This document shows positions 1 to 41,648 of a stretch of DNA of 64,000 nucleotides, piece by piece. A program made the translations under genes and the position numbers. Under the pieces are notes generated by a model. It made no database searches, had not been told where the DNA came from, and saw only the letters and a program-made list of their open reading frames with translations. Position 1 is the stretch's first letter. Every line of letters begins with the position of its first letter. The stretch is from Vairimorpha necatrix (lineage: Eukaryota): assembly GCA_036630325.1 (NCBI GenBank), contig CP142728.1:434001-498000 (forward strand). The letters are read 5' to 3'.

Positions 1-609
1 ATAATACGTTTTTTCTATTTCATGGCGGAAAATCACTTTGTATAATTCTATTTGTCCGATTTCCATTTCAATTGATATTTATAATTTCATTTATGATTGC
101 TATTATTCGTGATATAAAAAATACGAAATTAAAATAAAAAAACGGGAAAAGGTCCCGCTTATTTGTTTTATTCCAGTTACTATGTATCCGCCTTATTCAA
201 AATTTATTTATTATTGTACTTATTTTTGATCAGATAATATCAGAAATAATTGTAAATTTATGACTAGAGACGCGAACTACCCAAAGCTAGAATATTATAT
301 AGGTATTAAATTGATATAATGTATCTTTCTATAGATACTAACTCATAAAACATAATTTTCTTTATTCGGATTTCTTCTAAAAACTGCTCTTTTGTAAGTT
401 TTATTTTGTGAATTGTATTGTATGCATGAAATATTTGATTTTTACATAAAAATTACGTTATCCTACTAGTTTGGTTTTTAAAGCCACATAATTATAAGTG
501 AATCATAATATCACTCTCAACGTGCATATAAGGATGAGCTCGTACATCGAAGGTGGGTAGATATAAATCCCCGGGACTAAAACTTGAAACTTTTTGCGAT
601 AAACATAAC

Positions 610-1226
610 ACCGATAATTATGAAGTTGGTTCAATGTAATTTATGTTCGTCCATCCGAAAGGTATAGAATATAAGTAGAAACGTATTTTAAGCCAATAAA
701 AGCACTCTTATAATTATTATCGTTACGTAAAGTACTTGCCGGTTTTAGCTTATTTGCATTAATGCTACACTCTGTGTGGATCCTAGAGAAAATGAGAGAA
801 TAACCAAAGTAGAGCAACATCGGGTCTAGAAGACCCATTTTTCAAAATTCTTTAACACGGTGGTCGAAACAGCTAGGGACTATTGGTAAACGCAGTTTAA
901 TAAGATGCTGGGCTTGTGACGCGGATATGTAAGATATGCATGATGTTAAGTACCTTTGAGCAAATAAAATGATGTTCGCTCTCTCATTAGTCATACTATA
1001 GGCATAAATATGTCCGCAGTGGTGTACTTTGGACTTTATTATAGGTATAGGTGAATTATATTCTAATGAGCCAAACCAATGAATAAGACGAATTCTGGGG
1101 ATTTAAATGTTTAATTGATGGAGTTTTGGTGAATAAAAATTTAACGCTACCAGTGGAGAAGGATCGCATCAGATAACTTCTAATTCTTTGTAATATTTCT
1201 TCTTTCTTTTACTTACAAGAAAAAAA
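610..1226 (+). mobile_element. Diverged copy of the tRNA-headed SINE-like family (head not recognisable)
   Basis: Colinear blocks shared with 26830-27630 (gataattatgaagttggttcaatg, ggatcctagag, taacacggtggtcgaaac, gtacctttgag, taccagt..ggatc, ttacttacaagaaaaaaa); 5' boundary approximate. Confidence 0.8.
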
Positions 1227-1722
1227 TAAGACTAGCAAATTTGGAAATGTTTTTGTGACGACTTCTAACATATTTTATAATTCTATTAGTAAATTATAAG
1301 TATAAACGAGCTTTAAAAATATTTTAATATTACTCAATACAATAAAAATAAAGTGTTTTAATTTAATTGTTTTAGATTTTGAATGTTATTGAGATTTTTA
1401 TAGTTTCTAGGTCGTACTAGTTCGTTTTATATTAACTCTTCTGAAAATAAATCGCATAAGTTTACGTATATATTTACTCCATGACTTTCATGAACAAATA
1501 ACGAATTTGTTGTGTATTATTATCTTTTTTAATAATATGAAATTGCTGCTTTAACCTCAACCCTTCATGTAAGAATAAAAATTATTTTTCTAGTACATCC
1601 TATCTCATAGATAGTATATAAAGTTAATACGGGTTTCTTGGGATTCTACTATTTTTTGAGGTTTTTAATATTTAAAATTTGCGTATATTTTCTTATTAGA
1701 AAAAATTATAAATGAAAGTATG

Positions 1723-5817: not shown

Positions 5818-5859
5818 GTATGATATTTGAGTTTTTGCGATTTTATTAAAAAATTATGT

Positions 5860-11144: not shown

Positions 11145-11855
11145 TTATTCGTCAAATAGTTCTACTTGTATATATTCATATTCTTCACTTATATTTATTT
11201 CCCCTTGATAATATACCTTTTTATTATCATAAACCAGTACCATATTATTTTCTTCTTCTACTTCTATTAATTCACATGTTTTTTTCAAATACAAATATAA
11301 TTCTTCATTACCTTTCACATTTCTAAAATTAAAAATGCAAAATTTTTTATCTTTTTCTTGACTTGTACTTGTCAAGAAATTAAGTGCTAATAATGAATAT
11401 TTTTCTGGTTTTTTATACTTATTTATGAAGTTTACATTCTTTTTACTCGTTTTTATATTTTTTTTCTTGTATATTTTTATATTGACTGGTATATTTTCCT
11501 GGATTTTTCTATAATAAAAGTAATCATTAATATATATATTGTTATGATATTGTGTACAATATTTCAATATCTCATGTTTCTTATGTACTATTTCTTTTTT
11601 TGTAGTTATATAACAATTCATGCTCTTTTTATATTTTATAGGTTCTAGTTCATGTTTTTTGTATGCGGGATTATATTTCCATATGATTAAGTGTGGTACT
11701 AAGAGTTTGAATTTTTCTTTAAGAATATTTTTAGTATGTAGATATTTTTTACTAATAACACGCTTAGTGTTTATAGTTATAATATGTCTTGGTGGAGATA
11801 CATAAGTTAAACACGGGGTAATTATTTTGTATTTTATACTAAAGCCCATATTCAT
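11145..11855 (-). CDS. Hypothetical protein
   Basis: 236-aa ATG ORF in a gene-dense block; no motif recognised. Confidence 0.6.
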   Translation of the reverse strand: MNMGFSIKYKIITPCLTYVSPPRHIITINTKRVISKKYLHTKNILKEKFKLLVPHLIIWKYNPAYKKHELEPIKYKKSMNCYITTKKEIVHKKHEILKYCTQYHNNIYINDYFYYRKIQENIPVNIKIYKKKNIKTSKKNVNFINKYKKPEKYSLLALNFLTSTSQEKDKKFCIFNFRNVKGNEELYLYLKKTCELIEVEEENNMVLVYDNKKVYYQGEINISEEYEYIQVELFDE

Positions 11856-12189
11856 GCTAAATTTACTTATTTATAGTTTTTTCATACATTTTGTTTGTTC
11901 TACAACAAATTACTTTTAAGGTCAACTTTGTTTCCAAAAAGTTTTTTTTATATAGGCGATAAATATGTTTTTAGTATAAATATATGTTGTTTTATTTTTT
12001 TAAATATGTTGCTTTATAATATGTTGTTTTATTTATATAATATGTTTTTTTCCCGTACTCCATACTACTATCCTGTTTTACTCATTTATGTTCTTGTTTT
12101 TCTCATGTATGATCTTGTTTTTCTGCCCTTCTTACAAGATACCTCACTTCTCCTAAATTTGTGTATCTTGTTTTTTCTCATGTATGTTC

Positions 12190-12696
12190 TTATTTTTTCT
12201 CATATATGCTTAGTATTTCGCTCATTTTTCGTTCTATTTCTTCATCTGTCTCCACTTCTCTTTCTATCTTTAGTACCATACACACTAGTTTTACACATGC
12301 TTTTATTAAAAGTTCCTCGTCTTCTTGATATGTTTCAAGATACACTGTGTCATTTAGAAATACCCAAAGATATTGGGTCATTAGCCTTGTGAGTTTATAT
12401 TTCTCTACATATAAGTTTATATTTTTATAAATGTCTACCATCTCAAAGTCAAAGTCCATTATTTTACAAATTTCTAATTCTATATTAGAATTATTTACTA
12501 ATAGATCTTTATTATTTATTATATAATTTGATATTTTACATCCCAGTACAATACAAGTATTTATTATAGTGTCTCTGTCTCCAGTCCCTTCTTTCTTATA
12601 TATTTTGTATAAATTTGTACAATATTGTACAGATCTCTGAGTACAGCCCAAGTTTCTACATTTATTTACAATTTCCTGTATGTCCTTAAAAGTCAT
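12190..12696 (-). CDS. Cyclin-like protein (transcriptional cyclin C/K/T type)
   Basis: Cyclin-box-like TCIVLGCKI..ELEICKIMDFDF..WVFLND; ATG 12696 downstream of CCCCC. Confidence 0.7.
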   Translation of the reverse strand: MTFKDIQEIVNKCRNLGCTQRSVQYCTNLYKIYKKEGTGDRDTIINTCIVLGCKISNYIINNKDLLVNNSNIELEICKIMDFDFEMVDIYKNINLYVEKYKLTRLMTQYLWVFLNDTVYLETYQEDEELLIKACVKLVCMVLKIEREVETDEEIERKMSEILSIYEKK

Positions 12697-12820
12697 ATAT
12701 AAATTAAAGGGGGTCAAATTTAAACAATATTTCTACAATACATTTATTATTATTTTATACTGCTCTATTTATTATATATATTTAATACAATTTAAGTATC
12801 TAATAGATTTGTACTTTCTT

Positions 12821-13381
12821 TTAAATTATGTTAAGGGTGTTCTTGTCTTTTCCTAATATCTTCTTGATTTCTTGTATATCTACTGTCTCACATTTATCTA
12901 TCACTCTTTTTACATATTCTTCTACTCCTTCTTTTATATTCTCCACCACTCTCTTATCAATATTTTGCTCCACTCCCATTTCTCTAAAATACTGCTCGAT
13001 TTTATATTTAATTTCTTCATTATTCAGTAATTGTCTACTATTTTTATATGTCATAAACTTAGTAGATTTGTAAATATTCTCAAATTCGTATTTTCTTTCT
13101 GTAATTTCAAGTGTCTCTGTCTTTTTCAAGTTCTTTAAGAACTTGTTGTCTAAGAATTTGTTTATTTTTAGTGTGGGTCTTGTTTTTAGATTTTTGATTT
13201 TTTCTATGACTATTTTGTTGAAATCTAGTGGGGTGATTTTGTATATTTTAAGGAATTTAAGGAGGGTATTTTTGTCTATTTTTTGGTGTATAAAGAAATT
13301 TATAAGGTCTTCAATAGTATCTTTATGATCTTGATCTTCTTTAAGTTGATCTTGATCTTCTTTGAGATTTTGACTTTCCAT
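12821..13381 (-). CDS. Histone-fold protein, possibly SAGA Ada1/Tad1- or TAF4-like
   Basis: C-terminal EIKYKIEQYFREMGV..VVENIKEGVEEYVKRVI resembles a histone fold; CCC before ATG; identity uncertain. Confidence 0.5.
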   Translation of the reverse strand: MESQNLKEDQDQLKEDQDHKDTIEDLINFFIHQKIDKNTLLKFLKIYKITPLDFNKIVIEKIKNLKTRPTLKINKFLDNKFLKNLKKTETLEITERKYEFENIYKSTKFMTYKNSRQLLNNEEIKYKIEQYFREMGVEQNIDKRVVENIKEGVEEYVKRVIDKCETVDIQEIKKILGKDKNTLNII

Positions 13382-13471
13382 AAAGAGGGTTTTAAAAAAT
13401 TAAATAAAATTCTTTTTTATATCTTTTTTTAATATATCCAGTTTAAACTATATTAAACTTATATAGTTGTT

Positions 13472-14743
13472 TTAATTTTTAGTAAATATATTTAGGACGG
13501 GGAGTTCGTCTATTACTAATTTACTTATAAATCTCATAAATGTCTCATCATAACATTCATCAATATACTTATTTATCTTATCTTCTTCATTATATTTAAT
13601 CTTATCAAGTCTATTTCTTTTTAATATCTTAAGACAATATGAATATAAAGTACTTGTCCTCGGTCTACTACTCATAGTCTCACTATATCCCTTTTTATAT
13701 TCTTCTCTAATTATTTCTTCTAAATTTATCTCATTCTTCTGTAGAATTTTGTAAATATTTCCACTAAGAAAGGCATTCTCGGGGTTGTTCACCCACATTT
13801 CAGAAATAAATCTAAGAATCTCAATATCCAAGATATTCTTACTTAATAGAGAAATATATAAGATATATTTAGTGTCACTACAAATAAATTTACCATCTTG
13901 TACGAATATCCCTCGTCTGAAGATGAAATCTTCATAGACTTGGATTTGGGGGGCTTTCTTGACTAAGACATTGTAAATTGACTTGTAGTCTGAGAATTTA
14001 GGCAGAGTCAGGAATAAATAAACAAGTCTATCAAAATCTATAGTGGAAGTATTATTATGATCGATATATTGATCTAGTAAATAATATTTCCCGGAATCTA
14101 TGAAATATAAAGTGGGGGTTTCTATCCCTTGGAATAAAGAGACTTCTCTTAGTTCTATAAGTTTACTCACAAATGAGTCACTCTTGTGTAAATTTAGAAG
14201 GACTTGTTTCATGTCGAGATGGTCTAAAACCATATACTTGATTTTCTTAAAATGGTAATTAAGAATTTTAAAGAATGATTCAAGGACTAAATCTTTATCA
14301 TTTAACTTATAAATGTCATCGTCCTTATTAAATGTATTAGATATGCTGTTAGATGTAGTGGTATTATTAGAAGATACTTGTGGATGTTTTCTTACCCATA
14401 ATCTTTTAAGTTTTTCTCTACCACTTCTTCCTAAGACACTTGTCCATAACTCTAACTTGTTTATACTCACTTCGTCATAAACCTGAGATGACTTAATGAG
14501 TGGATCATAAAACAATATATGAGAAAAGGAGTGGAACTTAGCATAAAACACATTATTAAAATCTTCATTCTGCGTCATGAAATACTCAGAGACCATTTTT
14601 ATATCTTCGAAATATGGGAAATTTACTATTAAGAAATCTATATTGTCAATAAAAGGCTTAGTAATTTGGACTACTTCTTTTTTAAAAGATTTTAAAGATT
14701 TCCTCATAAATCGAAGCATTTTCTTGTAATCGTGTTCATCCAT
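13472..14743 (-). CDS. Hypothetical protein
   Basis: 423-aa ORF with CCC motif upstream of ATG. Confidence 0.8.
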   Translation of the reverse strand: MDEHDYKKMLRFMRKSLKSFKKEVVQITKPFIDNIDFLIVNFPYFEDIKMVSEYFMTQNEDFNNVFYAKFHSFSHILFYDPLIKSSQVYDEVSINKLELWTSVLGRSGREKLKRLWVRKHPQVSSNNTTTSNSISNTFNKDDDIYKLNDKDLVLESFFKILNYHFKKIKYMVLDHLDMKQVLLNLHKSDSFVSKLIELREVSLFQGIETPTLYFIDSGKYYLLDQYIDHNNTSTIDFDRLVYLFLTLPKFSDYKSIYNVLVKKAPQIQVYEDFIFRRGIFVQDGKFICSDTKYILYISLLSKNILDIEILRFISEMWVNNPENAFLSGNIYKILQKNEINLEEIIREEYKKGYSETMSSRPRTSTLYSYCLKILKRNRLDKIKYNEEDKINKYIDECYDETFMRFISKLVIDELPVLNIFTKN

Positions 14744-14867
14744 GCGAAAGGGAAAAAAAACTAAAATTTATAAATAATTTGAAATTTAAAATAAATCTAA
14801 AATAAAACTAAATCTAAAATAAAACTAAATCTAAAATTATTTAAGATAAATTTATTTGAGATTATTC

Positions 14868-14992
14868 ATGCAATATAAGTTTATGCAATATAAGTTTATG
14901 CAATATAAGTTTATGCAATATAAGTTTATGCAATATAAGTTTATGCAATATAGGTTTATGCAATATAAGTTTATGCAATATAAGTTTATGCA
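14868..14992. repeat. 15-bp minisatellite (ATGCAATATAAGTTT) x~8
   Basis: Direct tandem copies in the divergent intergenic region; one unit has an A>G variant. Confidence 0.95.
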
Positions 14993-15038
14993 GACATAAT
15001 TATATTATCTAATCTTATTTTGTAATAATATCACCCCC

Positions 15039-15314
15039 ATGTTCAAAATACGAAATGATCTCAAAATACAAAATGATCTTAAAATTCTTGACATTTTCGA
15101 ACTACAAGGAGAATCAAAAAATATCCACAAATTTGATGGGAAATTTAATAGGCAGAAAATAGAACTGGAATTTGACACATTTATTTTAAAAGGAAAAAAG
15201 ATAAATAAAAAGATCAGTATTTTAGAAAAAGAAGATGATCAATTAAAAATAATATCTAAAGAAGTAAATTATTACATTTTTGATAAACCACCAAAATATA
15301 AAGTACTAAATTAG
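15039..15314 (+). CDS. CTF8: Ctf8-like chromosome transmission fidelity protein
   Basis: IFELQGE..ILKGK..ILEK..YIFDKPP pattern; CCCCC directly before ATG. Confidence 0.65.
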   Translation: MFKIRNDLKIQNDLKILDIFELQGESKNIHKFDGKFNRQKIELEFDTFILKGKKINKKISILEKEDDQLKIISKEVNYYIFDKPPKYKVLN

Positions 15315-15407
15315 TATTTGAAATCAGATCAGTGAATAAATTGTAATTTGACAATTCTGTCTCCTTTACTCCTTTTTAGGTATAAAAAAAGAAATTTCTA
15401 ATTTTTT

Positions 15408-16007
15408 ATGGAAAAACAACAAAATGAGAAGAAACTCAATGAAGAAGAAACTGAAAAATTAGCTCTTAAAGAAGAACACCCTAAGAAAGTCAATGAAGAA
15501 GACAATTTAGACACTCTTCCGGAGAAAAGGGAAGAACACCCAAAGAAAGTCAACGAAGAAGACAACTTAGACACTCTTCCAGAGAAAAGGGAAGAACACC
15601 CTAAGAAAGTCAACGAAGAAGACAATTTAGACACTCTACCAGAGAAAAGGGAAGAAGACATTGTTTTTAAAAAAGTCAATGTTGAAAAAAATAAGGAAAA
15701 AGAAGAAGATCACAATTTCTCTTCAAATTACGCAGACCATAAAATCGACCTTCTCTCCATAGAAAATAAAGATTTTCCTAAGAAACAGAAAAAAGTAAAA
15801 GACTCTCTTCATTTACTTAAAGAAAACAGAGACAGAGATTTCGGGAGAAGTAAAAGAGGACATGTAAGAAATAAAAAACAAGGAAGAGAAACAGGAACAA
15901 GAAGGATAAAAATAAGAAAGAATAATTATGAGAGTAATGATATAAATAATTACAATATAAAAACAATATCAAAAAAGAGTAGAAGAAAAGAAGCAGAGAG
16001 ACAGTAA
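15408..16007 (+). CDS. Hypothetical charged protein with 20-aa tandem repeats
   Basis: Three 60-bp units ([20 protein letters not shown]) at ~15471-15656; basic C-terminus. Confidence 0.7.
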
Positions 16008-16095
16008 AAAAATAAAGAAATATTATATAATACTCTTTTTAAAATATTTATAAATATATCTTATACTCTTAGTAAAATAAACCCCCCCTTATAAA

Positions 16096-16608
16096 ATGAC
16101 AAGTGAAAAACAAATTCATAAAGAAAGTCTAACAGAAGTAGTAAAATATCTAAATGAGGAAAATAAAACAAACATAGAAGAGGAAGAAGAAGTAGAAATA
16201 TACAGTAAGAAGAAAATAAGACAAATGTCAAAGAAAAGAAAAACAGAAGAAAGAACAAAAAACAACGAGAAATCTCAAGAAAAAATGAAAGGCGATAAAT
16301 TTAAGCAAGAGAAGTTGCAAGAAATATCTGAAAAATCTAAACAAGAGAAATCTCAAGATACCCATAAGCAGGAGAAACTTACACGAAAAGAAAGAAGGAA
16401 AATGAAAGAAGAAAACAATGGAGAAGGTATGAGCTCAAAAGAATACATGAAAATATTTAAAGAAAATCCAGGGAGAAAAATCGAAAGATCAGATAAAAAT
16501 ATCAGCAGGCTGCATATTCCAAGTAAGAGGAAATCGGAATTCCCTAAAGCGGACGAGAAGCCTAAAAAGAGAAACTTCAAGAAAAGGTCTAAGCAAAGAA
16601 GACGATAA
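16096..16608 (+). CDS. Hypothetical K/E/R-rich protein
   Basis: 170-aa ORF after a CCCCCCC motif. Confidence 0.75.
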   Translation: MTSEKQIHKESLTEVVKYLNEENKTNIEEEEEVEIYSKKKIRQMSKKRKTEERTKNNEKSQEKMKGDKFKQEKLQEISEKSKQEKSQDTHKQEKLTRKERRKMKEENNGEGMSSKEYMKIFKENPGRKIERSDKNISRLHIPSKRKSEFPKADEKPKKRNFKKRSKQRRR

Positions 16609-16621
16609 ACAAAATAAAAAC

Positions 16622-16724
16622 ATATATAAGTTATATAAGAGTTATATATAAGCTATATAAGCATTATATATAAGTTATATAAGCATTATATATAAGCTAT
16701 ATAAGCATTATATATAAGTTATAT
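16622..16724. repeat. Degenerate AT-rich tandem repeat (TATAAGCATTATATATAAG-like)
   Basis: Visible tandem units in the convergent intergenic region. Confidence 0.8.
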
Positions 16725-16798
16725 CTATTTGATGTCGCGTTGTGATTTACGTGGCCTTATTTTATACTGTGGTATTATTTATGCCTTCTTTTACATTA

Positions 16799-18754
16799 TT
16801 AAATTCTATAGAGACCTTTGAGTTTTATAATAGACTTTTTATCTGTAAAAATAATATCGTATAATTTCTTTCTTTCTCGTTTCGTACATATGAAAACATA
16901 TCTAAATATATCTTCTTTGATTAAATCTATAGAAATGTCATGTTTTTTTAAGTAAAATATTAAAATCATCAAATTATCAAAATCCTGAGACTTGACCATG
17001 TCGACTTTCTCTTCATTTTTAAAATTTGATATCAAATTTATAGCAGTCAAATATATAAAATTCCTTAATTTGTAATAATCCGCACTGTCTTTATAAGTGA
17101 AAGTAGATTCGCCCACAGTACATGTTTTTATAATTTCTTGATTGGGTCTCTTTGTCTTTTTTATATTCCTTAGATCTTCTAATAAATACTGGTAGATAAA
17201 TAAGAAGTCTTCCTTATTTTCAATATTCAATTTCTCAGACAAGAAATAAAAAAGTATAAAAATATTCTTGTGTCTTTTTCCATATTTCTTCATCTCCTTA
17301 AAAATTACTCTAGTGTCTATTTCTTGTAAATTTATACATTGATTTATAATCTTGACTCGACTCATTTGTAAATAAATATCTTCTACTTCTATAAACATGA
17401 AATAAATCATCATCAACATCTCGAAATATTTCTCTGTATTCCTAAAATCCATATTTATGAAATATACCACAAAATATAAAACATCCTTGTGATTATCCTT
17501 TAAAGTTATCAAATATAAATACAAATATGATAAATTCATATCTCTAAATAAAATATTAATAAATTGTATCTTGTTCTTCGAATTATTAATTATAATTAAT
17601 AAATTATCTAATAAAAGATCTAAAGTGGACTTATTTATAAATCTCAGAATTATCTCATTATATAAATCATTATTATAAAGATCATTGTATATTTTTACAA
17701 TATCAAATGACTTATTAAATTTCATCTTGATCTTATTTAAAATCTTATATTTGTATTTTAAAAAATTTTCAATCATGAAATCATAATCACTGAATGTTTT
17801 AAATTGTGTGGAAATTGTAAAATTTTCTAAATTATCATGTAATAATTCTAAAGTATCCGATTCATCGTACGAGCCATCTGTAAAATCCAATATTTTAAGT
17901 ATAAAAATCATCATCATAGTATCTTCGTAAATATTAGTAAATAAATGTATTGATTCCTCAATACATCTTAAATAAATCCCTTTTTTATATTTCGAACTTC
18001 CAAGTTGATAAATCAACTTGATAAGTTCAATTAATAATTCCAAATCTGAAGATTCAAAAATTTTAAAAGTATCTTGAGAAAACATCAAATCTATCAAATA
18101 AACACTGTATCCTAAAAGAAAATCTTTATAATCATCAGAAAACATCTTAAAATCATAATCTAATAAATAATATAGAATTCTACAACAAAATAAGAAATTT
18201 CTATCTAACAAATTATTCTCTAAATAATAATTTAGTTGTTTGTAAACATCTAATAATCTATTATGACAAATCTTATTATTATCTAATAACTTAAGAATAA
18301 TAGACAAATTTTCTGTAGATTGTAAATCTATCAATTTTTTATATTCCTTGTAAATTATATTGTATCCAAAATAATTCCTGAAAAAATCAATATCTTCGTT
18401 ATTGACTTCGCATTCTTGTAAAATGGAAATAATGTCTAAAGGATGTGTAAAATTTTGTATATTTTTCTTTAACCATGTCATAATATTCACATTTAGATCA
18501 ATTTGATTGTATTTGATAAGAGTAAAATTTTTTATATTTTTTACCATTTCAATTATTTTATGCAGAATTTTTTTATTTATAGAATAATTTGTGAGTTTGT
18601 TTGTTTTCAAAAGATAAAATTGAATATAAAAATCTTCATGTTCAAATATCTGAAAAAAATCTACAATATTAATATCGATTATTTCATATCTTTTTATTTT
18701 GCTTGTTATATCTTTAATTGGAGATGTTTTTGTCTTTTCTTTCTTCAAGTGCAT
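16799..18754 (-). CDS. Hypothetical protein (likely helical-repeat)
   Basis: 651-aa ORF; no motif recognised. Confidence 0.75.
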   Translation of the reverse strand: MHLKKEKTKTSPIKDITSKIKRYEIIDINIVDFFQIFEHEDFYIQFYLLKTNKLTNYSINKKILHKIIEMVKNIKNFTLIKYNQIDLNVNIMTWLKKNIQNFTHPLDIISILQECEVNNEDIDFFRNYFGYNIIYKEYKKLIDLQSTENLSIILKLLDNNKICHNRLLDVYKQLNYYLENNLLDRNFLFCCRILYYLLDYDFKMFSDDYKDFLLGYSVYLIDLMFSQDTFKIFESSDLELLIELIKLIYQLGSSKYKKGIYLRCIEESIHLFTNIYEDTMMMIFILKILDFTDGSYDESDTLELLHDNLENFTISTQFKTFSDYDFMIENFLKYKYKILNKIKMKFNKSFDIVKIYNDLYNNDLYNEIILRFINKSTLDLLLDNLLIIINNSKNKIQFINILFRDMNLSYLYLYLITLKDNHKDVLYFVVYFINMDFRNTEKYFEMLMMIYFMFIEVEDIYLQMSRVKIINQCINLQEIDTRVIFKEMKKYGKRHKNIFILFYFLSEKLNIENKEDFLFIYQYLLEDLRNIKKTKRPNQEIIKTCTVGESTFTYKDSADYYKLRNFIYLTAINLISNFKNEEKVDMVKSQDFDNLMILIFYLKKHDISIDLIKEDIFRYVFICTKRERKKLYDIIFTDKKSIIKLKGLYRI

Positions 18755-25520: not shown

Positions 25521-26591
25521 TTATTCTTTTCTTTTTATTATGACATTTTTCATTATGTTTTTTATGAATCTGTCAGCATATTCCTTGGGATCTTTACATG
25601 ATTTATTCGTAACACATAAGCAGAAGACATAAAATAAGTTTTCGATCTTTTTCTTTTTACTATAACTTGTTAGTATGTCGATTATTCCCATAGAATATTC
25701 TCCTAATTTTATGATGTCTCTATAATCTTCTTTAATATATGTTTCGTCTACATTTAAATTTTTTTCATCTTCTTTATTTTGTTTATTTGTCTTATATTCT
25801 ATTATATTTGCTTTGCATTCTTTATAATTTGATTTATTTTCATTATACGTCTTAGTATTTTCAAAATATCTATTATTAATGGTCTTATCCTTTATACAAT
25901 CAATATCTTTATCTGTTTTATTATATTCTTCATTTTTTATCTTTTTTCTTTCTGGTGTATTTACACTGATTACTAATGAATAATCCATTATATTTAAATC
26001 TCTTAAGAATCCCACGTCCTTCTTTATTTGCTCAATACATTTCTCTACATTCCCAATTTCTATCTTCTTTTTTTCTTTATACCATTCTTTGTCTTTTTTT
26101 ATATATTGGTTTCTTGTCCTATACAAATTATCGCCTTTCAAATCGAAAATACTTTCAATATCTTCACTTCTAAACACGTTTTTCATTATTATAAATCGTA
26201 TTTCTTTCTCTTTTGTCTTATATGTGACACATCCCAATATTTTTACTAAATATGTATCCCGATTATTTATTAAATATTCTGTGTAGTCATTTATTATTCT
26301 CAATAAAGTGTCGAATTCATAGTTCTGGATTATTTTTAAAGTGTAATTGAAATCTGAACTAAAAAATATTGAAGATGAAGAATTGCCTTTAATCAAAGGA
26401 GTGTAGTGATAAGACATCTCGAGATCGAGAAAAGGCTTATCAAAAAGTGTCCTTATTTTTATGAAATTAGTTTCTTTATGGATTGTTAAGACTTCGTTGT
26501 TATTCGTTAGTTGTATGAAGTCTCTATGGATAGACTTTTTTATATTTGTTTTGTTGGCGAAGAAACTTAAGACTCCTTCAAGTAAATCCAT
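25521..26591 (-). CDS. Phosphatidylinositol-phosphate kinase (PIP5K/Mss4 family)
   Basis: G.SSS.FF.S.D..Y.LK, FDLKG, IMDYSL, MGIIDILTSY, P..YADRF. Confidence 0.92.
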   Translation of the reverse strand: MDLLEGVLSFFANKTNIKKSIHRDFIQLTNNNEVLTIHKETNFIKIRTLFDKPFLDLEMSYHYTPLIKGNSSSSIFFSSDFNYTLKIIQNYEFDTLLRIINDYTEYLINNRDTYLVKILGCVTYKTKEKEIRFIIMKNVFRSEDIESIFDLKGDNLYRTRNQYIKKDKEWYKEKKKIEIGNVEKCIEQIKKDVGFLRDLNIMDYSLVISVNTPERKKIKNEEYNKTDKDIDCIKDKTINNRYFENTKTYNENKSNYKECKANIIEYKTNKQNKEDEKNLNVDETYIKEDYRDIIKLGEYSMGIIDILTSYSKKKKIENLFYVFCLCVTNKSCKDPKEYADRFIKNIMKNVIIKRKE

Positions 26592-26829
26592 TTATTTTGA
26601 TTTGTTAGATATTATTTATAAATTATAAAAAGGAGTGGACTTACCAATGAGACACATTAAACATGTAAAAATAAAAAATAATTTTTTTTTTATTGTGGCA
26701 GAAACAATATTTTATAGAAAAACAGATCCTGTTGTATAAGCGCATGATATAGTTAATGTACATATATTATTGGTTAAGAAAATGATCTTATTGCGTTAAA
26801 AACGAAAATATCAAATTAATATGATTTAA

Positions 26830-27630
26830 GGTGCCCTTAGCACAGTGGTAGAATGCTATGCTTCCATTGAGCAATGGCTGGGTTCGATTCCCAGGGGCAC
26901 CAAAATTGTTTCTACTTTCTATGATGCAGTTGGAACAACTCAGATGATGAAAATGTCCACGATAATCATTAAGTTGATTCAATGAAACTTGTGTGTGTCC
27001 AGCCACAAGAGGATTAGCATCTAGTGTAGAAACGCACCTCAAGGCCAAAAAGCAGTATCGCCCTTTGGTGACTTAATGATACATAAAAGTATCTAATGGG
27101 TACGGCCTAGTTGGAGCCCATCGCTGGTGCACTCTAAAGTAGGATCCTAGAGCTAACTAAGAGACTAGACGAAGTAGGGCAATAGAAGATCTCGTGGACC
27201 CTATCCTACATGATTCTGTAACACGGTGGCCGAAACTAGTGGGAGACTGGTGGTCAACGCAGCCCAATAAAAACGCCGGGCTGGGGATGTGGTCGTGTAA
27301 GGAGCCGTGTGTGCAATACGGATGATTGTAGGTACCTTTGAGTCAGTACGATAATGTCTCTCCTCGGGTTATAGATAACCATGCCCGTTAAGTATATCCG
27401 CTGTGAGGTCACTCTGGACGCGATTTGAGGTATAAATGGAAAGTGTTCTCCTGGAGCCAAAGTCCAATGGATACGGCGGAGCTTGCTGCACCGGCAAGTG
27501 TATGGAGGGAGTTTTAGTGAGTAAGAATCTCACAGTACCAGTTGGATGAGGATCACACCCAAATCCCTCTGGTCCCTATGTAAGGTTTCTCCCTACCTCT
27601 TACTTGCAAGAAAAAAAAAAAAAAAAAAAA
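26830..27630 (+). mobile_element. tRNA-derived SINE-like element, full-length young copy
   Basis: tRNA-like head 26830-26902 with A box TAGCACAGTGG (26838-48) and B box GGTTCGATTCC (26881-91); ~700-nt non-coding body; ~A20 tail; TSD AAATTAATATGATTTA (26813-28, 27629-44); 4 other homologous copies in the window. Confidence 0.9.
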
Positions 27631-27999
27631 ATTAATATGATTTAGGAAAATAAACAACCCCCATAGTCGCGTGGCTGAAGTGGGCTATCATGAGAAAACC
27701 CTAATCTTTCATTGAAGCACACATTTTTTCATAAAAATAAAGCCGCTATAGATATAAAAAGGCGTATTAAATTTTTATAAAGCTCATTGTAAATGGGCCT
27801 ATAATCTGGTTAAACTTTGAGGTTTTCTCAAATTCTAATGCTCTACAAAAAACCAAATTATAAATTTAAGCTTTAATCAATATCAACAATAATCTAATAC
27901 AGTAAAATGACAGATTAATTCTTGTCCTCAATTAGCATATACCTGACTATATAAGATTTAATTACTTTTGTTCTACATATAAACGGAATATATACAGGA

Positions 28000-28840
28000 G
28001 GAAGAATATTAAACAACCCTCCTCAAGGATGTTTAATTTTTTTAACCCCAAAAATGAAGTGCAAAAAAGGAGGAGCAAGAATGGAACCTAAATATCCGAC
28101 CACTTATAACATTAGAAATATAAACTGAACATAAAATGACTCTAAATTAATTCTAAACAGATTACATTTACAAAAATTTTTATATAATAGGAAATCAAAA
28201 AGAACCCGATATGATCTTCTTTTAATCCGGGTTCTAACGGGATGCTTCTTTTAGAACAGCCCACGCCCCTTCAGTAATGTATCTGTAGATACCATTCTGG
28301 ACATACAAAACCAATTGATCGTTTAAAAATGTAATGTTTTTGTGCCTCAAATTGATATAAATTTATGTACCTTTCCAACAATCTGTAAATATATTATATT
28401 TGTGAGATATAATCTTTTAGTGATTTTTCGGCAGTCTCGGTCTTTCATCCCTTTTCTTTTAGTGAGATTCAACCCTTTCCTTACTCCTTTTAACCATTCC
28501 AAACACCCATACTCCTACAACTTTGTGGCCTTTATTGTACTTTCCTTTCCATTTTTAGAATCGTCAATTTCTAAAAATATACCCGGTCCGCCAATTTTTG
28601 TACTACCAGTTATATGTTTACTAAATTTGCTGACAATTCTTATAGTGTTTATCTGTCAATAGCAAGAATTTATTAAGTGATTCTTAATGTTGTATCTTTA
28701 AAAATATCTGTATGGCTTGGAATATAATTAACCAAAGCAATTTAAATCTATAAAGTACTTCCTTAAAGTGATTATACTTCCAGTTTTGTGGCTTTTAGTA
28801 CATATCATTTTGTATTGTATTTCATTACGTCGATGTACAT
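28000..28840 (-). pseudogene. Merlin/IS1595(IS1016)-like DDE transposase relic
   Basis: Broken frames give KIGGPGIFLEIDDSK..KYNKGHKVVGVWVFGMV, IFTDCWKG, SIGFVCP; many stops and frameshifts; boundaries approximate. Confidence 0.8.
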
Positions 28841-29564: not shown

Positions 29565-32500
29565 TGTGGTATCCCACATGTCAAACATATCATTTTTGAC
29601 ATTTCTTGATTTGTTTACCCCGTAAACAAACAATAAAAAATTATAAAAGAAAATTCCATACTTAGGGGTATGGAAGATATAAGAAATAAACATTATAGGT
29701 TTAACTTATCTTTATTGGAGTTGTACTTCCGCAGGAGGTACGACATATTGAATTCAATAAGAGAGTACAAACATCATGAACTCCAACCCACGCGAGGAAA
29801 AGAAATCGCAGGACACAACTCTAAAACTCAAGAAGCAAAAGTAGTCTCTATAAGAATTAAGACAGGTGAAGTGGACCTAGGAATCACCAAAAATGTAGAA
29901 ATGATTAACGATATCTACGAAATCGATCTACTAGGATGGTTTAAGAAAATTGAAGAAATTTTCCAAAGGAATCAATGGAACGAAGAGACAAAAAAGCTAT
30001 TTTTATTCGATCTCATTGAAGATCAGATTATAGACAAAGCCAATTTGAAAGATAACTACGAAGAAAACAAGAACTACATCATTTCACAGGTGTTCTCACA
30101 GAAAAGAGTCGAGAACTTAATAGTAGAACTGGATAATCTAAAACAAACTGACTACATTTTCTTTGATAACTACATAAACGAAATCATGAAACGAGTAACC
30201 ATCTACAGTAAAGTATCTAATTGCAGCCAGAAAGAATACGAACGAAGATCAAAGGAATCCATTTACAGAGGACTTGGCTTAGAAACGGTAAGATATCTTG
30301 AGGAACAAAACCTCGAAACACTACTTGAAATCATACCAGCCCTGAAAAGAATGGAAGAAAACATCATAACAAGATTTAACATACCGAGGAAGATAAACAA
30401 CATCTCAGGTATAAGATTCATGAAAAAGTGGTGTAAAGTCCACAAAACTCTGGGACATACAACGAGAGATTGCGGGCAAAGCAACGAAACAAATCGATCA
30501 AATATTAGCAAAGTTAAAAACGAAAAATTTAACCTCAACAAGAAGACAGTAGCTCCCGATACCAACTTGAACCTAAAGAATACAACGAGGAAGATTTCAG
30601 AACCCAGAGAAAATAAAAACTCTTTAAACTACGTTAGTTTAGAAAATCCTACTATTGTCGAACAACTCGACATTCCACTCATAATCAATAAGAAACACGA
30701 GTCAACAGGAACTCTAGACTGTGGAGCAGGATTAAACTTCATCAAAGCAGACCTCGTAGAACAATGGAGCCTTACCACCAGAGAAAGTAAAGAGATCCAG
30801 GTAATGTTTGGAAATAAATCAAACGAAACCACCAGTACGTTAATAGAATTAGAATTACAGCTGAAGGGGAAAAACGAAACATGTAAAATAGAATTATATC
30901 TATTACAAAACTTACCGGTTAATATATTACTTGGCAGAGACTTTATATCGAGAAATGAAATTATACTTGACTTTACAAGAAGGAAAATAATTTGGAACAA
31001 CTCAACCATGAGTATGAAAACTAATCAAGAAGAAACAGAATTCCAAAAACCTTTTGAGAAAACACTCATTACAAAAGATGAAGCAAGATTACATAAAATC
31101 ATAGATGACTATAAAAGCAAAATTAAAGAAAACGACCCAATAAACACAGATCAAGTCAAATTACAAGTGTCTAAAAACAACATAAAGCTTAAGAAAATTA
31201 ATTATGCAGTACCTTCAAACTACAAAGAAGACGCAATACTAGAAATAGAACGACTATTAGACTCTAATATAATCGAGGAATGCAACGAAAGGAACACCAG
31301 CCCCGAATTCTTTAAGAAAAAGAAAAACGGCAAGATAAGACTAGTAATAGACTACAGAGAAATTAATAACTTTATCGAAGACGAAGTAGAAATAATTCCA
31401 AAGATGGACGATATCATTTATCAAATCGGAAAAAGCGAAGTAATAAGCAAATTGGACCTGACGAATGGATTTAACCAATTACTCCTAACAGAAGAAAGCA
31501 GGAAATGGACAGCATTCTCTATATTCGGCAAAACATTCAGATACAAAAGACTCCCTTTCGGATTAAAAAATGGCCCCAAAGCATTCCAGAAAACAATGAA
31601 CAAAATACTCTTCGGAATCAAAAATATATCGGTATACATAGACGACATAATTATAGCCACGAAGGACTACGAGTCTCATCTGAACACACTCAAAGAATTA
31701 TTTACAAGGCTACAGAAGCACAACGTAATTGTAAACTTCGCTAAATCAGAATTCTGCACCAAAGACACAGAAATTCTAGGAACAAGAATCTTTAACGGTA
31801 AAATGTACCCTCTCACTAAAGACAGTAAACTAATCGAAAACATGAAATGTAAAACCAAAAAAGACCTACAGAAAATAATAGGAATATTCAATTGGTATAG
31901 GAAATACATCCCAAATTTAAGCTTAGAAATTTTAAATTTAACAGAAAAACTAAAAGGGAAAGAACAGATAGTTAAACTAACTAAAGAAGACAATTCAACG
32001 ATAAATAAGCTAATAGACAAACTAAAAAATAAAAGCTACCTAGTACTACCAGACTATAGCAAAAAATTTACACTACACTGCGACCCTTCAGAACTCGGAA
32101 TGGGAGCAGTATTATCACAGGAACACGGAATAATACTAAATATAAGCATGAAGTTCAATAAAACAGAAAGAAATTACACAATAGTAGAGAAAGAATACTT
32201 CGCGATAGTCTACGCAATGGACAAATGTAGAAACATTATACTTGGAAATTATGTCGAAATACACACGGATAATAGGAACTGCCTTTTTAAAAGCAAAATA
32301 AGCAGAAGAATGGAAAGATGGGACGCGATGATGCTAGAATACAACTACAGTATAAAACAAATAGCTGGGGAAGACAACACCGTAGCAGATCATCTATCAA
32401 GATGTTTCAGAACAGAAAAAGCTAAGAACGAAAACGATCTAATAAATACAATAGAATTATATGCAGAGAAAATATCTGAAAATAAATCTGGGACAAAAAA

Positions 32501-33663
32501 CTGGAAAAAGAACAAAGATGATAAAATAATAATTAAAAACTCCGAATCCGAAAACTTCCTAAAAAAGATGCATGAAATTGCTGGTCACCCAGGAATAGTC
32601 GTATTGAACAAAAATTTATCTCCCTTTTACAGCATCAACGGAATAAAAAGCAAGATAATTAATGTAACAAAAAACTGCAAAATATGCAACCTAAACAAGA
32701 AAGAAAAAGTAAAAATTCAGAAATTACAAATAACCTCCGATAAAATGTACGGAACGGTTGCAATGGACATATTTGGACCATTTGAACTCGAAAATTTCAT
32801 CCATGAAGATATTCATCACAAAGCATATTATCTGTCCATAACAGATGTCTATTCAAGAGTCTCAAGGGTATACCTACTGTATAACATCACGGAAAATACC
32901 ATAATAAAATGTATAGATAAATGGATACAAGAATTCCAACAGCCGGAAAAAATTATCATGGACAATGGCACTCAATTCACAGGCGAAAAACTAAGAGAAA
33001 AATACGGAAACTGTAAGGGAATTAAACTTATAAACACCCCAATATATCATCCACAAAGTAACGGAATGGCTGAAAGACAAAACAGCATAATAGCTGAGTG
33101 CTTAAGAATGAATAGATCTAATAACATCAGAGAAACAACAAATAAAATCAACATCAAGCTAAACGTCAATTATAAAAGAATAATCGGATGCTCACCATTC
33201 GAACTGGAGAAAAAATACAGTTTCTTTGACCCATTCAAAAGGCAAACCACCAACAAAGAACCTAAAAATAAAACAACTCCCATTATTCCAAACCTTAATA
33301 ATGATAAAAAATTACAAATAAACGAAAAAGTATTTATTAAAGAATTCAACGCCGGTAAGATGGATGAACAGTATAAAGGACCATACACAATCAAAGAAAT
33401 TGGAAACAAGGGAATCTGGGCCAGAGTGAACGAAGGAGGAAATTGGATCCACATAAAAGACATTAAAAGAAGAGGGTAGGATGTGGTATCCCACATGTCA
33501 AACATATCATTTTTTGACATTTCTTGATTTGTTTACCCCGTAAACAAACAATAAAAAATTATAAAAGAAAATTCCATACTTAGGGGTATGGAAGATATAA
33601 GAAATAAACATTATAGGTTTAACTTATCTTTATTGGAGTTGTACTTCCGCAGGAGGTACGACA
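29565..33663 (+). mobile_element. Ty3/Gypsy LTR retrotransposon, family A copy 2 (single open gag-pol ORF)
   Basis: LTRs 29565-29745 and 33482-33663 (differ by one T in a T-run); TSD CCTTC (29560-64, 33664-68); PPT ~33465-33481. Confidence 0.97.
29670..33479 (+). CDS. gag-pol: Gag-Pol polyprotein (gag, PR, RT, RNase H, integrase)
   Basis: 1269 aa; CX2HX4HX4C knuckle, LDCGAG, YIDD, HHCC, DDE, GPY; starts inside the 5' LTR and stops inside the PPT. Confidence 0.96.
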   Translation: MEDIRNKHYRFNLSLLELYFRRRYDILNSIREYKHHELQPTRGKEIAGHNSKTQEAKVVSIRIKTGEVDLGITKNVEMINDIYEIDLLGWFKKIEEIFQRNQWNEETKKLFLFDLIEDQIIDKANLKDNYEENKNYIISQVFSQKRVENLIVELDNLKQTDYIFFDNYINEIMKRVTIYSKVSNCSQKEYERRSKESIYRGLGLETVRYLEEQNLETLLEIIPALKRMEENIITRFNIPRKINNISGIRFMKKWCKVHKTLGHTTRDCGQSNETNRSNISKVKNEKFNLNKKTVAPDTNLNLKNTTRKISEPRENKNSLNYVSLENPTIVEQLDIPLIINKKHESTGTLDCGAGLNFIKADLVEQWSLTTRESKEIQVMFGNKSNETTSTLIELELQLKGKNETCKIELYLLQNLPVNILLGRDFISRNEIILDFTRRKIIWNNSTMSMKTNQEETEFQKPFEKTLITKDEARLHKIIDDYKSKIKENDPINTDQVKLQVSKNNIKLKKINYAVPSNYKEDAILEIERLLDSNIIEECNERNTSPEFFKKKKNGKIRLVIDYREINNFIEDEVEIIPKMDDIIYQIGKSEVISKLDLTNGFNQLLLTEESRKWTAFSIFGKTFRYKRLPFGLKNGPKAFQKTMNKILFGIKNISVYIDDIIIATKDYESHLNTLKELFTRLQKHNVIVNFAKSEFCTKDTEILGTRIFNGKMYPLTKDSKLIENMKCKTKKDLQKIIGIFNWYRKYIPNLSLEILNLTEKLKGKEQIVKLTKEDNSTINKLIDKLKNKSYLVLPDYSKKFTLHCDPSELGMGAVLSQEHGIILNISMKFNKTERNYTIVEKEYFAIVYAMDKCRNIILGNYVEIHTDNRNCLFKSKISRRMERWDAMMLEYNYSIKQIAGEDNTVADHLSRCFRTEKAKNENDLINTIELYAEKISENKSGTKNWKKNKDDKIIIKNSESENFLKKMHEIAGHPGIVVLNKNLSPFYSINGIKSKIINVTKNCKICNLNKKEKVKIQKLQITSDKMYGTVAMDIFGPFELENFIHEDIHHKAYYLSITDVYSRVSRVYLLYNITENTIIKCIDKWIQEFQQPEKIIMDNGTQFTGEKLREKYGNCKGIKLINTPIYHPQSNGMAERQNSIIAECLRMNRSNNIRETTNKINIKLNVNYKRIIGCSPFELEKKYSFFDPFKRQTTNKEPKNKTTPIIPNLNNDKKLQINEKVFIKEFNAGKMDEQYKGPYTIKEIGNKGIWARVNEGGNWIHIKDIKRRG

Positions 33664-37037: not shown

Positions 37038-37816
37038 TTTTTTTTCTCTGCAAGTAAGAGGTAGGGAGAAACCTTACATAGGAACCAGAGGGATTTAATG
37101 TGATCCTTATCCAACTGGTATTGTGAGATTTTTACTCACTAAAATTTCTTCCATACAAATTGCAGGTGCAGCAGGCTCCGCCGTATCCATTAGACTTTGG
37201 CCCCAGTAGAACACTTCCCATTTAAACAAGAATTCGCATCCAGAGCGACCTCGCAGAGGATATACTTAACGGGCATGGTTATCTATAACCCGAAGAGAGG
37301 CATCATCGTACTGACTCAAAGGTCTCTACAATCATCTGTAATGCAAATACGGCTTCTTACACGACCACATCACCAGCCCGGCATTTTTATTAAGCTGCGC
37401 TTACCACTAACTTCGGCCACCGTGTTACAAGATCTCGTAGGATAGGTTCATCGAGGCTTTTTATTGCCCTATTTCGTCTTGTCTCTTAGAGAGCTCTAGG
37501 ATCCTACATTAGAGTGCACAAGCCATGGGCTCCAATTAGACCGTACATATCGGATACTTTTAAATTTTATTATGCTACCACAAGTGTGACACTATTTTAG
37601 TTCTTGAGATGCGTTTCTACACTAGATGCTAATCCCCTTGTGTCTAGAAACACAACAGGTTTCATTGAAACAACTATATGATTATCGCGGACATTTTCAT
37701 CATCTAAGTTGTTCCAACTACACCATAGAATGTATAAACAATTTTGGTGCCTCTAAGATTCGATTCCAGCTATTGGTCAATGGAAGCATCGCCTTCGACC
37801 ACTAGACCAAGGGCAC
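37038..37816 (-). mobile_element. tRNA-derived SINE-like element, second full-length copy
   Basis: Colinear with 26830-27630 end to end; A box TGGTCTAGTGG, decayed B box, A8 tail; no TSD seen. Confidence 0.9.
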
Positions 37817-38349
37817 ATTTGGTTCATACACTATGATAATTATTTATATTCCGAAGAAAGAATAATAGCATGCTGGTATGATAAAAATATAAACCACGCC
37901 AAGAATAAAAATGTCTATGCAATTGTGAAACATTTTACTCGCCAATTCCCGCCTTTGTTCAACTTTTCGTAGTATTTATTATAGATGAACTTTTTTTTAC
38001 TTCTATTGCTTATTTTTTTCTACCAAATAAAAAATATGAAACTTATCTGGAAGCTTTTCAAATACTATTCATTTTGGCAAAGATTAAAAAATGAATAGTA
38101 TGATAATATATCTTATATTCGTCTATACATGTTGCATTGCAAAGTGTATATTGAGACACCAGAAAACGATTTTGTGATTTACTTATTCAGATTCGGGTTT
38201 GAAAAAAATTCTAATCAATGATTTTTTCTAAATTATACAAGAATGTAAGATTTTTAATTTTACATCAAATTACCGCATTGTTTAATATATATCAGTGAAG
38301 AAAAAAATACTCAAATGCAATTAAGTTTTATGTATATATGGTTTTAAAA

Positions 38350-38570: not shown

Positions 38571-39224
38571 ATTTAATTTATTTTTAAGTTCTATGACGCG
38601 ATTATACAATTAAATTACTTTTTACCTATTATATGAAAAATTAGTTGAAAAAAGATCTTTTGCTTTTGTTTTTTAGAGAAATAATAGTAGTAAACATAGC
38701 ATTTACAAATAATAGAGAAAGGGGCCCGAATTCTTGCTTGAAAAGAGAATTGTATTCATTACATTTAAGTTTAATTGAGTATAAATGTGTTTAACAAATC
38801 GAGATTTTTTTAATGAAATATACAAACATAATACAAAAGCCAGAAAACAAGAAAAAAAACACTTAAAATAGAAAAATATTAAGGCATTGGTTGTTCTCAA
38901 TAGCTATCGAAATTGTGTCCTTATATAACTTTAAGCATAAAATTTTACAATTTTTTATTCATTTTGATTTCACCTTTTACGGGGATTCTTTTAATAGTTG
39001 GCGGACTTTTTCCCATGTGCAAATAACATCTTTATTATATTTATTATAATTTTTTGTATACATATCTTATGTTTAAAATATTTATTATTAGCCTACTACA
39101 GAGCCTTAAATACCGACAAAAATCCTCAAAATAACTTAAAAAGCCTATAAATGATTAGAAGTATAGAAGATGGATCAAGATATAATCTTATAGATCTTGG
39201 TTGTGGGTGCGTTAGAATAGTTGC

Positions 39225-39310
39225 GCAGTATCAGTTATATCTGAATCACACTCAAATTCCTTTGGTTCCTATATAAGGCTTTTATCTACCTCTTACTTGC
39301 TAAGAAAAGA
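39225..39310 (+). mobile_element. 3' fragment of the SINE-like family
   Basis: atcacactcaaattcctttggttcctatataagg..ctacctcttacttgc matches the SINE 3' end. Confidence 0.75.
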
Positions 39311-41648
39311 GGTTCTAGGAAAATTCACCGACCATCAATTCACCGACATCAATTCACCGACAGCAATTCACCGAAAATCAATTCACCGACCAACAAATTC
39401 ACCGACAACAAATTCACCGACAACAAATTCACCGACAACAAATTCACCGAAAAATTATAATATGTATTTTTTATGGGTATATTTATGATATACATATTTA
39501 ATTTAAATTTTTTTTTTGTATGGATCATAAATATTGTGCAATATAGCATTTGAATATTACTATATTTATATCACTAAATAAATTAAAAAATAGGAAAAGT
39601 ATCAAAATGTTCATTAAAAATTAATCTGAAAAGAAAGATTATGAAACAACGCGACAACAGCTCCTCAAAATTATGACATAAAATGTACTAGTATACTTGT
39701 AACATTAATGTTTTTACATTGCATTGGGGTGTAATGTTCTATCTAGACATATTGTAATAAAGTCTCATCCAATTCGATACCAAAGTGCAATGAAGGTATC
39801 TTAGGCACAATTGGTAAGGCGCAGGTTTGCGAAGAAAGATCTATACTTTACTTAAAATGGCACAACTCTTTTTAAATATTTTAACATTTTAATTCTGAAC
39901 CCCTAATTTCAATAATGCAGATCGAATATTTACTCTCAGAAAAGGGGAAGAAAAAATTAATTTTAGAAGGTCATCTTTTCTTTAAAGAAAAAGATGTTTG
40001 GGAACTATCCAAAATATATTGGAAATGTGAATACTATCAAAAGTGCAAGTGTAGAGTGATTACAATGTCTAATGGGGAAATTAAAGTGTTTGGCGAACAC
40101 AACCATTCGGGAGATGCTGCTAAAGTCGAAGCAGATAAAATATATGCTAATGTTCGAGCCTTGGCAAAAAGCTCTAGAGAAGCGCCACAATCTATTATAT
40201 CAGATTGTTTATCTCTATGCAGCCATGCTGCAGCTCCAAAATTGCCATCGATTGACAGTATGAAGCGTAGCGTTCGGTATATTCGACAAATTGCAGAAAC
40301 TAGCCCCGCACTCCCAAATTCGCGGCAAGAAATTACATTCACAGACGAATTCAAAGAAACGACAAGAGGGGAACCCTTTTTGCTATATGATTCTGGACCA
40401 GATGAAAACAGAATTTTATTTTTTCGACGACTCACAATTTACGGCTTTTGGCAGATAGTCAACACTGGTACGCAGATGGCACCTTTAAAACCGTACCATT
40501 ATTATTTCATCAACTGTACACAATTCACGGGCTAAAACAAAGTGCTTCTATTCCCTTGGTCTTCGCTTTATTGCCAAATAAATTAGAGCAAACGTATTCT
40601 AAATTTCTTTGCACTTTAAAAGAGTTGGAACCATCATTAAATCCGCAATCCATAACTGTAGATTTTGAAAAAGCCATGATGAATGCTATTTCAGTACAGT
40701 TTCCTGGTGCAAGTGTCTAAGGATGCTTTTTTCATTTCTCACAGTGCATTTTTCGAGCAGTTCAAAATCATGGACTCAAACTACTGTACAATACAGATCC
40801 AGAATTTGCACTGCAAATAAGATCGCTGGCCGCCATAGCATTTGTACCTTCCAATTTTGTTGTTGAAGTTTTTGAAGAATTGTCTGACAGAATACTGCCC
40901 ATCGAAGCTCTGCCCGTCTTAGATTATTTTGAAGATACTTGGATTGGCCGCCCAAACCGAAGACAGCGTCGAGCCCCGAAATTTGCATCAGAGATATGGA
41001 ATATGTACTCCAGAACAATAGATGGTCTACCGAGGACTAACAACTCGGTCGAAGGTTGGCATCGTGGGTTCGAGTCGCAAGCTGGTGGTACTCACCTGAA
41101 TATTTGGAAGTTTATCAATTGCTTAAAAAAGGAACAATCTCTAAATGAAGTTCGAATAGAACAATTTTTTTCTGGTTTTAATGCTCCTACGTCTAAAAAA
41201 AATATCGCGATTGTAGAACGAGACTTCTAAATATAGTGTCCAATTTTAATCGAGAAAATATTATAGAATATATTCATGCCATTGCCCATAATCTGACATT
41301 TTAATAATAAATTATTAGATTTTATGTTTTCTATTATTTTTAATTAGTTTTTTATGTTTATGATCATTTTGATACTTTTCCTATTTTTTAATTTATTTAG
41401 TTATATAAATATAGTAATATTCAAATGCTATATTGCACAATATTTATGATCCATACACAAAAAAAATTTAAATTAAATATGTATATCATAAATATACCCA
41501 TAAAAAATACATATTTCAATTTTTCGGTGAATTTGTTGTCGGTGAATTTGTTGTCGGTGAATTTGTTGGTCGGTGAATTGATTTTCGGTGAATTGCTGTC
41601 GGTGAATTGATGTCGGTGAATTGATGGTCGGTGAATTCTCCGGACACC
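39311..41648 (+). mobile_element. Mutator-superfamily (FLYWCH-MULE, Phantom-like) DNA transposon with foldback-type TIRs
   Basis: ~300-bp TIRs (39311-~39615, ~41358-41648) starting GGT, with 9 and 8 tandem AATTCACCGA units; 9-bp TSD AAGAAAAGA (39302-10, 41649-57). Confidence 0.95.
39915..41304 (+). pseudogene. MULE transposase with N-terminal FLYWCH zinc finger, disrupted
   Basis: YWKC..C.CR..HNH; WYADGTFK; VDFEKA; GCFFHFSQC; RTNNSVEGWH; frameshifts in a T-run (~40420) and an A-run (~41200); in-frame TAA 40718-20. Confidence 0.92.

Follow-up and report, generated by a model that had tools for sequence, protein, structure and literature searches.

An 800-bp non-coding element, tail included, on the forward strand of the 64-kb stretch of DNA analysed here (the window, taken at its full length) is very probably a young member of a family of tRNA-derived, poly(A)-tailed SINEs, transcribed by RNA polymerase III (Pol III) and copied by the reverse transcriptase of a LINE. 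It is apparently the first SINE of the Microsporidia that can be characterised, recently active and with an ordinary mechanism. The original prediction had placed an element of about 800 bp at this site, and its coordinates proved exact, with limits at 26829-27628. The features of the element (copy c1) and of its relatives in the window (c2 to c5) are collected in Table 1.

Table 1. Coordinates in the window of the putative SINE, its parts and its further copies.
Feature	Position	Strand	Basis or remarks
Copy c1, probable young full-length SINE	26829..27628	+	Sequence reading, blastn, nhmmer, motif location; contig breaks in run X2 (3)
Left target-site duplication, 16 bp	26813..26828	+	Exact 16-mer match
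Right target-site duplication, 16 bp	27629..27644	+	Exact 16-mer match
tRNA-like head (pseudo-tRNA), 73 nt	26830..26902	+	ARAGORN, Rfam tRNA, fold z
A box-like motif, begins at element position 10	26838..26848	+	Regex match to consensus
B box-like motif, begins at element position 53	26881..26891	+	Regex match to consensus
Non-coding body, GC ~0.47	26903..27610	+	Stop counts, Rfam, protein search
3' terminal module, best conserved	27512..27610	+	Identity of last 60 nt; content of c5
A21 run, unbroken (tail 18-21 A; final 3 A common to the duplication)	27611..27631	+	
Copy c2, full length, 84% to c1	37038..37818	-	B box broken, head decayed, A8 remnant
Copy c3, ~70% to c1	42785..~43440	-	Head largely eroded, A/T-rich tail remnant
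Copy c4, ~64% to c1	~545..1229	+	Head: T-arm-like remnant only; A7 tail remnant
Copy c5, 74% to c1	39211..39310	+	3' terminal ~100 nt only

The footprints of target-primed reverse transcription are present: an A tail, a duplication of 13-16 bp and a copy made up of the 3' part only. Tail and duplication occur together in c1, whose body stops at 27610 and is directly followed by the A tail. The duplicated 16-mer has two exact occurrences within the 64-kb window, at 26813 and 27629 only, and the duplication is given as 13-16 bp because the three A at its start can also be counted as tail. A tail of about 20 A and a long duplication of 14-16 bp had been announced for this site, and a run of 21 A with an exact 16-bp repeat, subject to that ambiguity, is what it carries. 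Since the window holds two Ty3/gypsy elements and a MULE remnant, the element could be thought of as a fragment of an autonomous retrotransposon, be it an LTR, a UTR or an internally deleted form, but this is extremely improbable, as c1 has no terminal repeats, as poly(A) together with a 16-bp duplication is not the footprint of an LTR integrase, and as blastn at word size 7 matched it within the window to its own five copies only. No match to a UTR or LTR, which the original prediction had named as an observation that would overturn it, was found within the window by this search.

The putative SINE begins with the pseudo-tRNA. ARAGORN calls this head a tRNA-Met(CAT), one of two calls in the 64 kb, and against the Rfam tRNA family (RF00005) it scores 27.3 bits (E 0.0025); as this lies under the gathering cut-off of 29 bits and the anticodon arm is abnormal, the Met(CAT) call does not establish the parent tRNA. 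The anticodon arm was also flagged as non-standard in a permissive Rfam scan covering 26780-27660. By inspection, the acceptor stem is paired at 7 of 7 positions (26830-36 with 26895-901), the D stem at 4 of 4 and the T arm at 5 of 5, with the loop TTCGATT; the anticodon arm is aberrant and has either a mismatched stem or else a loop of 5 nt. The fold of the head is more stable than that of 300 shuffled versions (z -2.7). ARAGORN and the Rfam tRNA score together indicate a tRNA-derived 5' head as in SINE2/tRNA elements. In the A and B boxes of c1 every position of the generally known consensus is matched, and the boxes lie 32 nt apart with a placement like that in tRNA genes, so that, as a sequence match, they would constitute internal Pol III promoter boxes in canonical position. 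All the parts that had been described for the head, namely the 7-bp stem, the A and B boxes, the perfect T arm and the odd anticodon arm, are present. A genuine tRNA gene was considered at this place and rejected on the score below the cut-off, the non-canonical anticodon arm and the absence of a terminator after the head. At the Rfam thresholds the tRNA family is passed in the 64-kb window at 55338-55409 only (tRNA-Glu).

Length and T-runs bear on the polymerase. With 800 bp, c1 exceeds the length of under ~600 bp usual for a SINE, which is a soft limit, and it contains a T4 at 27512, the first run of five or more T being a T6 downstream at 27724. The absence of any run of more than four T from the sense strand, brought forward earlier as a supporting argument, is a correct observation; it is likewise seen in 54% of 5000 composition-matched shuffles and, being expected from the composition of c1 itself, is no evidence for Pol III. 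A non-autonomous retroposon mobilised by a LINE and made from Pol II or read-through RNA, in which the head would serve as a processing or stability signal or be a leftover and not a promoter, would accommodate this failed control, a length that is great for a Pol III transcript and the internal T4. We consider it very unlikely, because c1 and other copies alike start one base ahead of the acceptor stem, AATAAA is missing from the final 50 nt of c1, and the A and B boxes are intact and canonical in the young copy and broken in the old ones, which is the prediction for a promoter that is kept in source copies only. The same length and internal T4 count against the SINE reading itself, as do the head score under the Rfam cut-off and the fact that a convincing duplication is found in c1 only.

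The body of the presumed SINE codes for nothing recognisable. The sense frames of c1 have 14-17 stops each and a longest stop-free stretch of 54 aa, a search of 5.8 billion proteins returned no relative of the longest antisense frame (91 aa), and no Rfam family reaches its gathering score in the body; c1 is thus non-coding and non-autonomous, with short frames and no protein, Rfam or Pfam parts. GC content is 0.47 in c1 vs 0.28 in the window, in line with the GC enrichment over the surroundings noted before, and the body is ~19 points richer than the genome. The element had also been presented as a structured RNA. This holds for the head only, since the whole 773-nt fold is not better than shuffles (z -1.0, 20 shuffles), thirteen 150-nt windows of the body give z from -1.7 to +1.4 on the sense strand with the antisense strand no different, and the alignment folding of four 3' ends yields an unfavourable covariation term (+0.94) with 2 of 24 pairs compensatory. 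The failure of the T-run and structure arguments does not speak against a SINE.

Conservation is highest at the 3' end, where the last 60 nt are 95% (c2) and 86% (c3) identical to c1, as compared to 84% and 70% overall. Given this conservation, the 3' module is a candidate for the site that the partner reverse transcriptase recognises. As c5 is made of this very part, as its conservation is the highest and as some contigs of the public run X2 (see below) diverge after 27499, it may be suspected, as a lead only, that the last ~100 nt are a separately acquired LINE tail. R2 elements are specific for rDNA and are not known to have an A tail or a long duplication. The R2 3'UTR family (RF00524) overlaps weakly with the conserved 3' module only (27506-27594), and the match was dismissed as chance (19.2 bits, cut-off 38, E 0.16).

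Exactly four copies besides c1, with the very different ages that had been attributed to them, were located in the 64 kb by blastn, MAFFT and nhmmer, with no sixth copy and with nhmmer E-values of 1e-243 to 5e-26. The five copies add up to ~3 kb or, by coordinate arithmetic, ~4.6% of the window. The start of c4 is secure from about 598, and c5 is either truncated on its 5' side or the tail end of a different element with the same 3' part. All five end A-rich at the same element position and have unrelated flanks and, together with the contig pieces from public runs, they make up a dispersed multi-copy family. The original prediction had asked of the other copies both poly(A) and variable duplications; the A-rich ends are there in five of five, and a clear duplication exists in one of five (c1), a possible one in c2 (7 bp at most, one of them mismatched) and none in c3-c5, in which the missing duplications are eroded. 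By rising age, GC is 0.47, 0.42, 0.35 and 0.34, and the old copies differ from c1 by 65, 105 and 133 GC-to-AT changes and by 31, 42 and 61 changes in the AT-to-GC direction (~2:1). Both the fall in GC and the 2:1 bias point to decay after insertion under AT-biased mutation.

Further copies of the family were found in public sequencing runs, of which 13 were listed and 11 held some part; the contigs of four of them (X1, X2, X3 and X5) were placed on the stretch at 88% likeness. X1 yielded 419 pieces, 163 at >=99%, 138 at 95-99%, 95 at 90-95% and 23 below, and is not independent, since it may be the sample behind the assembly of the window. X2 yielded 213 pieces (63, 54, 68 and 28 in the same classes), and X3, a bat gut metagenome, 18 (3, 6, 7 and 2), which are confined to the element (12 of 30 bins), carry no flanks and reach up to 308 nt with 7 differences. 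The two pieces of X5, 39-42 nt long, carry no meaning. The single-copy flanks are present in X2 as well, differing at 1-15 positions per ~160 nt and with a summed depth of 1-6 (37 in one bin, 28028-28091), and the bins of the element have a summed depth mostly of 270-815, with 85-124 in the end bins; depth is not copy number, and the contrast is a sign of strong repetition only. The depth of X1, a run whose kind is only guessed, is very uneven across single-copy flanks, from 0 to ~17,600.

The contigs also define the 5' end and the age of c1. Just before 26829 three X2 contigs pass into mutually unlike sequence, which fixes the 5' end of the family at 26829, one base ahead of the acceptor stem; one X3 contig diverges before 26843. 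Loose contig ends in X1 and X2 show a second head variant resembling that of c2, which points to two or more subfamilies. At 8 listed positions X1 and X2 disagree with the letter of c1 in nearly all of their depth, as does X3, where it covers them, fully at 7, and at five of these eight c1-specific positions c1 has A and the others G. From these discordant positions c1 is ~1% off the majority of the family, and is young without being brand new. Among the listed contigs none joins across an empty insertion site at 26813-27644, and X1 has no contig over the intergenic 26620-26811. The internal skips seen in X1-X3 at 88% likeness have sides of 21-39 letters, 6 of 15 being under 30. A conserved 24-mer and a degenerate 21-mer had no match in public metagenome contigs, nor had the 24-mer in public viral contigs. 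The head, the tail, the duplication, the graded copies and the contig pieces at >=99% all support the earlier description of a long-lived and recently active SINE inserted by target-primed reverse transcription.

Two side observations concern depth. X1 reaches 900-17,600 over the 5' coding end of the PIP5K gene (26300-26619) and ~82 on the other flank, which is uneven for a DNA run. Bin 28028-28091 stands at 10,388 vs 0-82 in its neighbours in X1 and at 37 vs 2-6 in X2; this segment is not repeated elsewhere in the window and may mark the border of a different repeat family.

The pieces in X3 raise the question of origin. A recent import of the SINE from an animal host, or an exchange with one, in which the copies in X2 and X3 would lie partly in host DNA and the high GC would betray foreign descent, would be compatible with the SINE mechanism, as it concerns origin. 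Such exchange would fit the GC of 0.47 vs 0.28, the pieces 97-99% alike and devoid of flanks in an unrelated gut metagenome, and the report that microsporidia and metazoans have exchanged transposons horizontally (PMC4202319). It is nevertheless unlikely: copies down to 64% identity and a GC of 0.34 in a microsporidian contig indicate long residence, and X2 also has microsporidian flanks, at low depth, so that its copies may all be those of the parasite. A broader proposal, in which the ~19-point GC excess of the body is sustained over a long history by RNA-level selection on source copies or by repeated exchange between microsporidia and animal hosts, in what would be the first characterised SINE of Microsporidia, seems doubtful to us; the near-identical X3 pieces fit its repeated-exchange option.

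For a Pol III-transcribed SINE the following sequence of events can be proposed. The A box (+10) and B box (+53) of the pseudo-tRNA head would start Pol III transcription at or next to 26829. The transcript would cross the ~710-nt body and the encoded A tail and probably end at a T-run in the flank (T6, 27724). A LINE endonuclease and reverse transcriptase, acting in trans, would then nick an AT-rich target, and priming would take place on the A tail, possibly aided by the conserved last 60-100 nt. Insertion would leave the A tail, the 13-16-bp duplication and an occasional 5' truncation, the footprints of which are those seen here, and the inserted copies would decay toward the AT-rich genome, as observed in the drop of GC from 0.47 to 0.34 with a 2:1 bias from GC to AT. 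The window holds no LINE reverse transcriptase (Pfam on 30 ORFs). A partner LINE is plausible, since LINE families are reported in related genera, with 15 in N. apis, 11 in N. bombycis and 4 in N. ceranae (Table 1, PMC4202319) and with 'Dong-R4' LINEs making up 1.04% of N. bombycis (Table 2, PMC3614468).

Among known systems, the poly(A)-tailed SINE2/tRNA elements of animals combine a pseudo-tRNA head, an A tail, a target-site duplication, 5' truncation and subfamilies of different age. The family described here resembles this general picture in its pseudo-tRNA head, its A tail, its 13-16-bp duplication, its 5'-truncated copies and its graded subfamilies, c1 being two to five times longer than its animal counterparts. 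The filamentous fungi have tRNA-related SINEs of a similar build, including MgSINE (472 bp), Mgsr1 (800 bp), Egr1 (700 bp), EGH24 (900 bp), Nrs1 (500 bp) and Foxy (PMC5063351). By description, likeness extends to the tRNA-related head with A and B boxes, the non-coding body of 0.5-0.9 kb, the tens to hundreds of copies and the dependence on LINE machinery, and difference to the microsporidian host, its genome of 28% GC and a body ~19 points richer. The claim that c1 is much longer than typical tRNA SINEs accordingly holds against those of animals, whereas among the fungal ones listed, at 472-900 bp, its length is ordinary (PMC5063351).

That no SINE had been well described in microsporidia, as supposed in the original prediction, agrees with a full-text literature search, which had subscription journals and supplements outside its range and returned table and legend labels only. 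The word 'SINE' occurs zero times in the main texts of PMC4202319, PMC7313128 and PMC12558613, whose supplements or deposited annotations may hold SINE-labelled families. A RepeatMasker 'SINE' line is given for N. bombycis (28,669 bp, 0.18%; Table 2, PMC3614468), the corresponding value for Microsporidia sp. MB is 0 (PMC11585130), and a SINE category stands in a figure legend of PMC13702014. The RepeatMasker lines may concern elements of this kind in a related genus; they are automatic class labels only, and the passages that give them describe no sequence, structure, duplication or copies.

The Microsporidia serve as models of how genomes become reduced, and surveys of their transposons list LTR elements, LINEs and DNA transposons. 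With a well-defined and recently active SINE, the microsporidian mobilome would gain a further class, and a relative of Nosema and Vairimorpha would have to possess active LINE machinery and retroposition driven by Pol III. The family would explain part of the 'unknown' repeats, which amount to 14% in N. bombycis (Table 2, PMC3614468), and its presence or absence at given sites could provide markers for typing strains of insect-infecting microsporidia. If exchange between host and parasite were true, the family would trace, and perhaps carry, transposon traffic between the two. Knowledge of how SINEs work is unchanged by it.

The window has a GC of 0.28 and densely packed intronless ORFs, 29 of them of at least 150 aa. 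Its deoxyhypusine synthase is 73% identical to that of Vairimorpha apis and 65% to that of Nosema bombycis, followed by many other microsporidia, and such protein likeness places the host, in keeping with the genome type assigned beforehand, among the microsporidia, near Nosema/Vairimorpha. The element forms an island with a GC of 0.40-0.47 between a Ty3/gypsy element and the PIP5K gene (25521-26591, reverse strand; Pfam 7e-50), whose best named relative is that of Vairimorpha bombi (38%). Pfam on 30 ORFs showed two Ty3/gypsy pol genes, a FLYWCH/MULE remnant and host genes; two long ORFs on the reverse strand, 45224-48385 (1053 aa) and 16799-18754 (651 aa), matched no Pfam family at E 0.001, and the former lies in a locally GC-richer stretch (0.37).

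The Ty3/gypsy elements, at 29565-33663 (forward) and 1720-5817 (reverse), have single gag-pol ORFs of 1269 and 891 aa from the ATG. The short LTRs of each match one another at 100% (153 nt) and 99% (183 nt), respectively, the two elements have ~28 nt in common at the LTR edges, and both look recently inserted. FLYWCH zinc finger and MULE transposase domains are spread over three adjacent ORFs at 39885-41227 (forward), and are suggestive of a Mutator-like element in decay. Just upstream of these ORFs and directly after c5, at ~39330-39400, come about five tandem repeats of 14-15 nt. The genuine tRNA-Glu(TTC) gene (55338-55409, reverse strand) scores 63.6 bits, and the first T-run downstream of it, a T6 located 26 nt past the gene, is the only example of a native Pol III terminator in the window.
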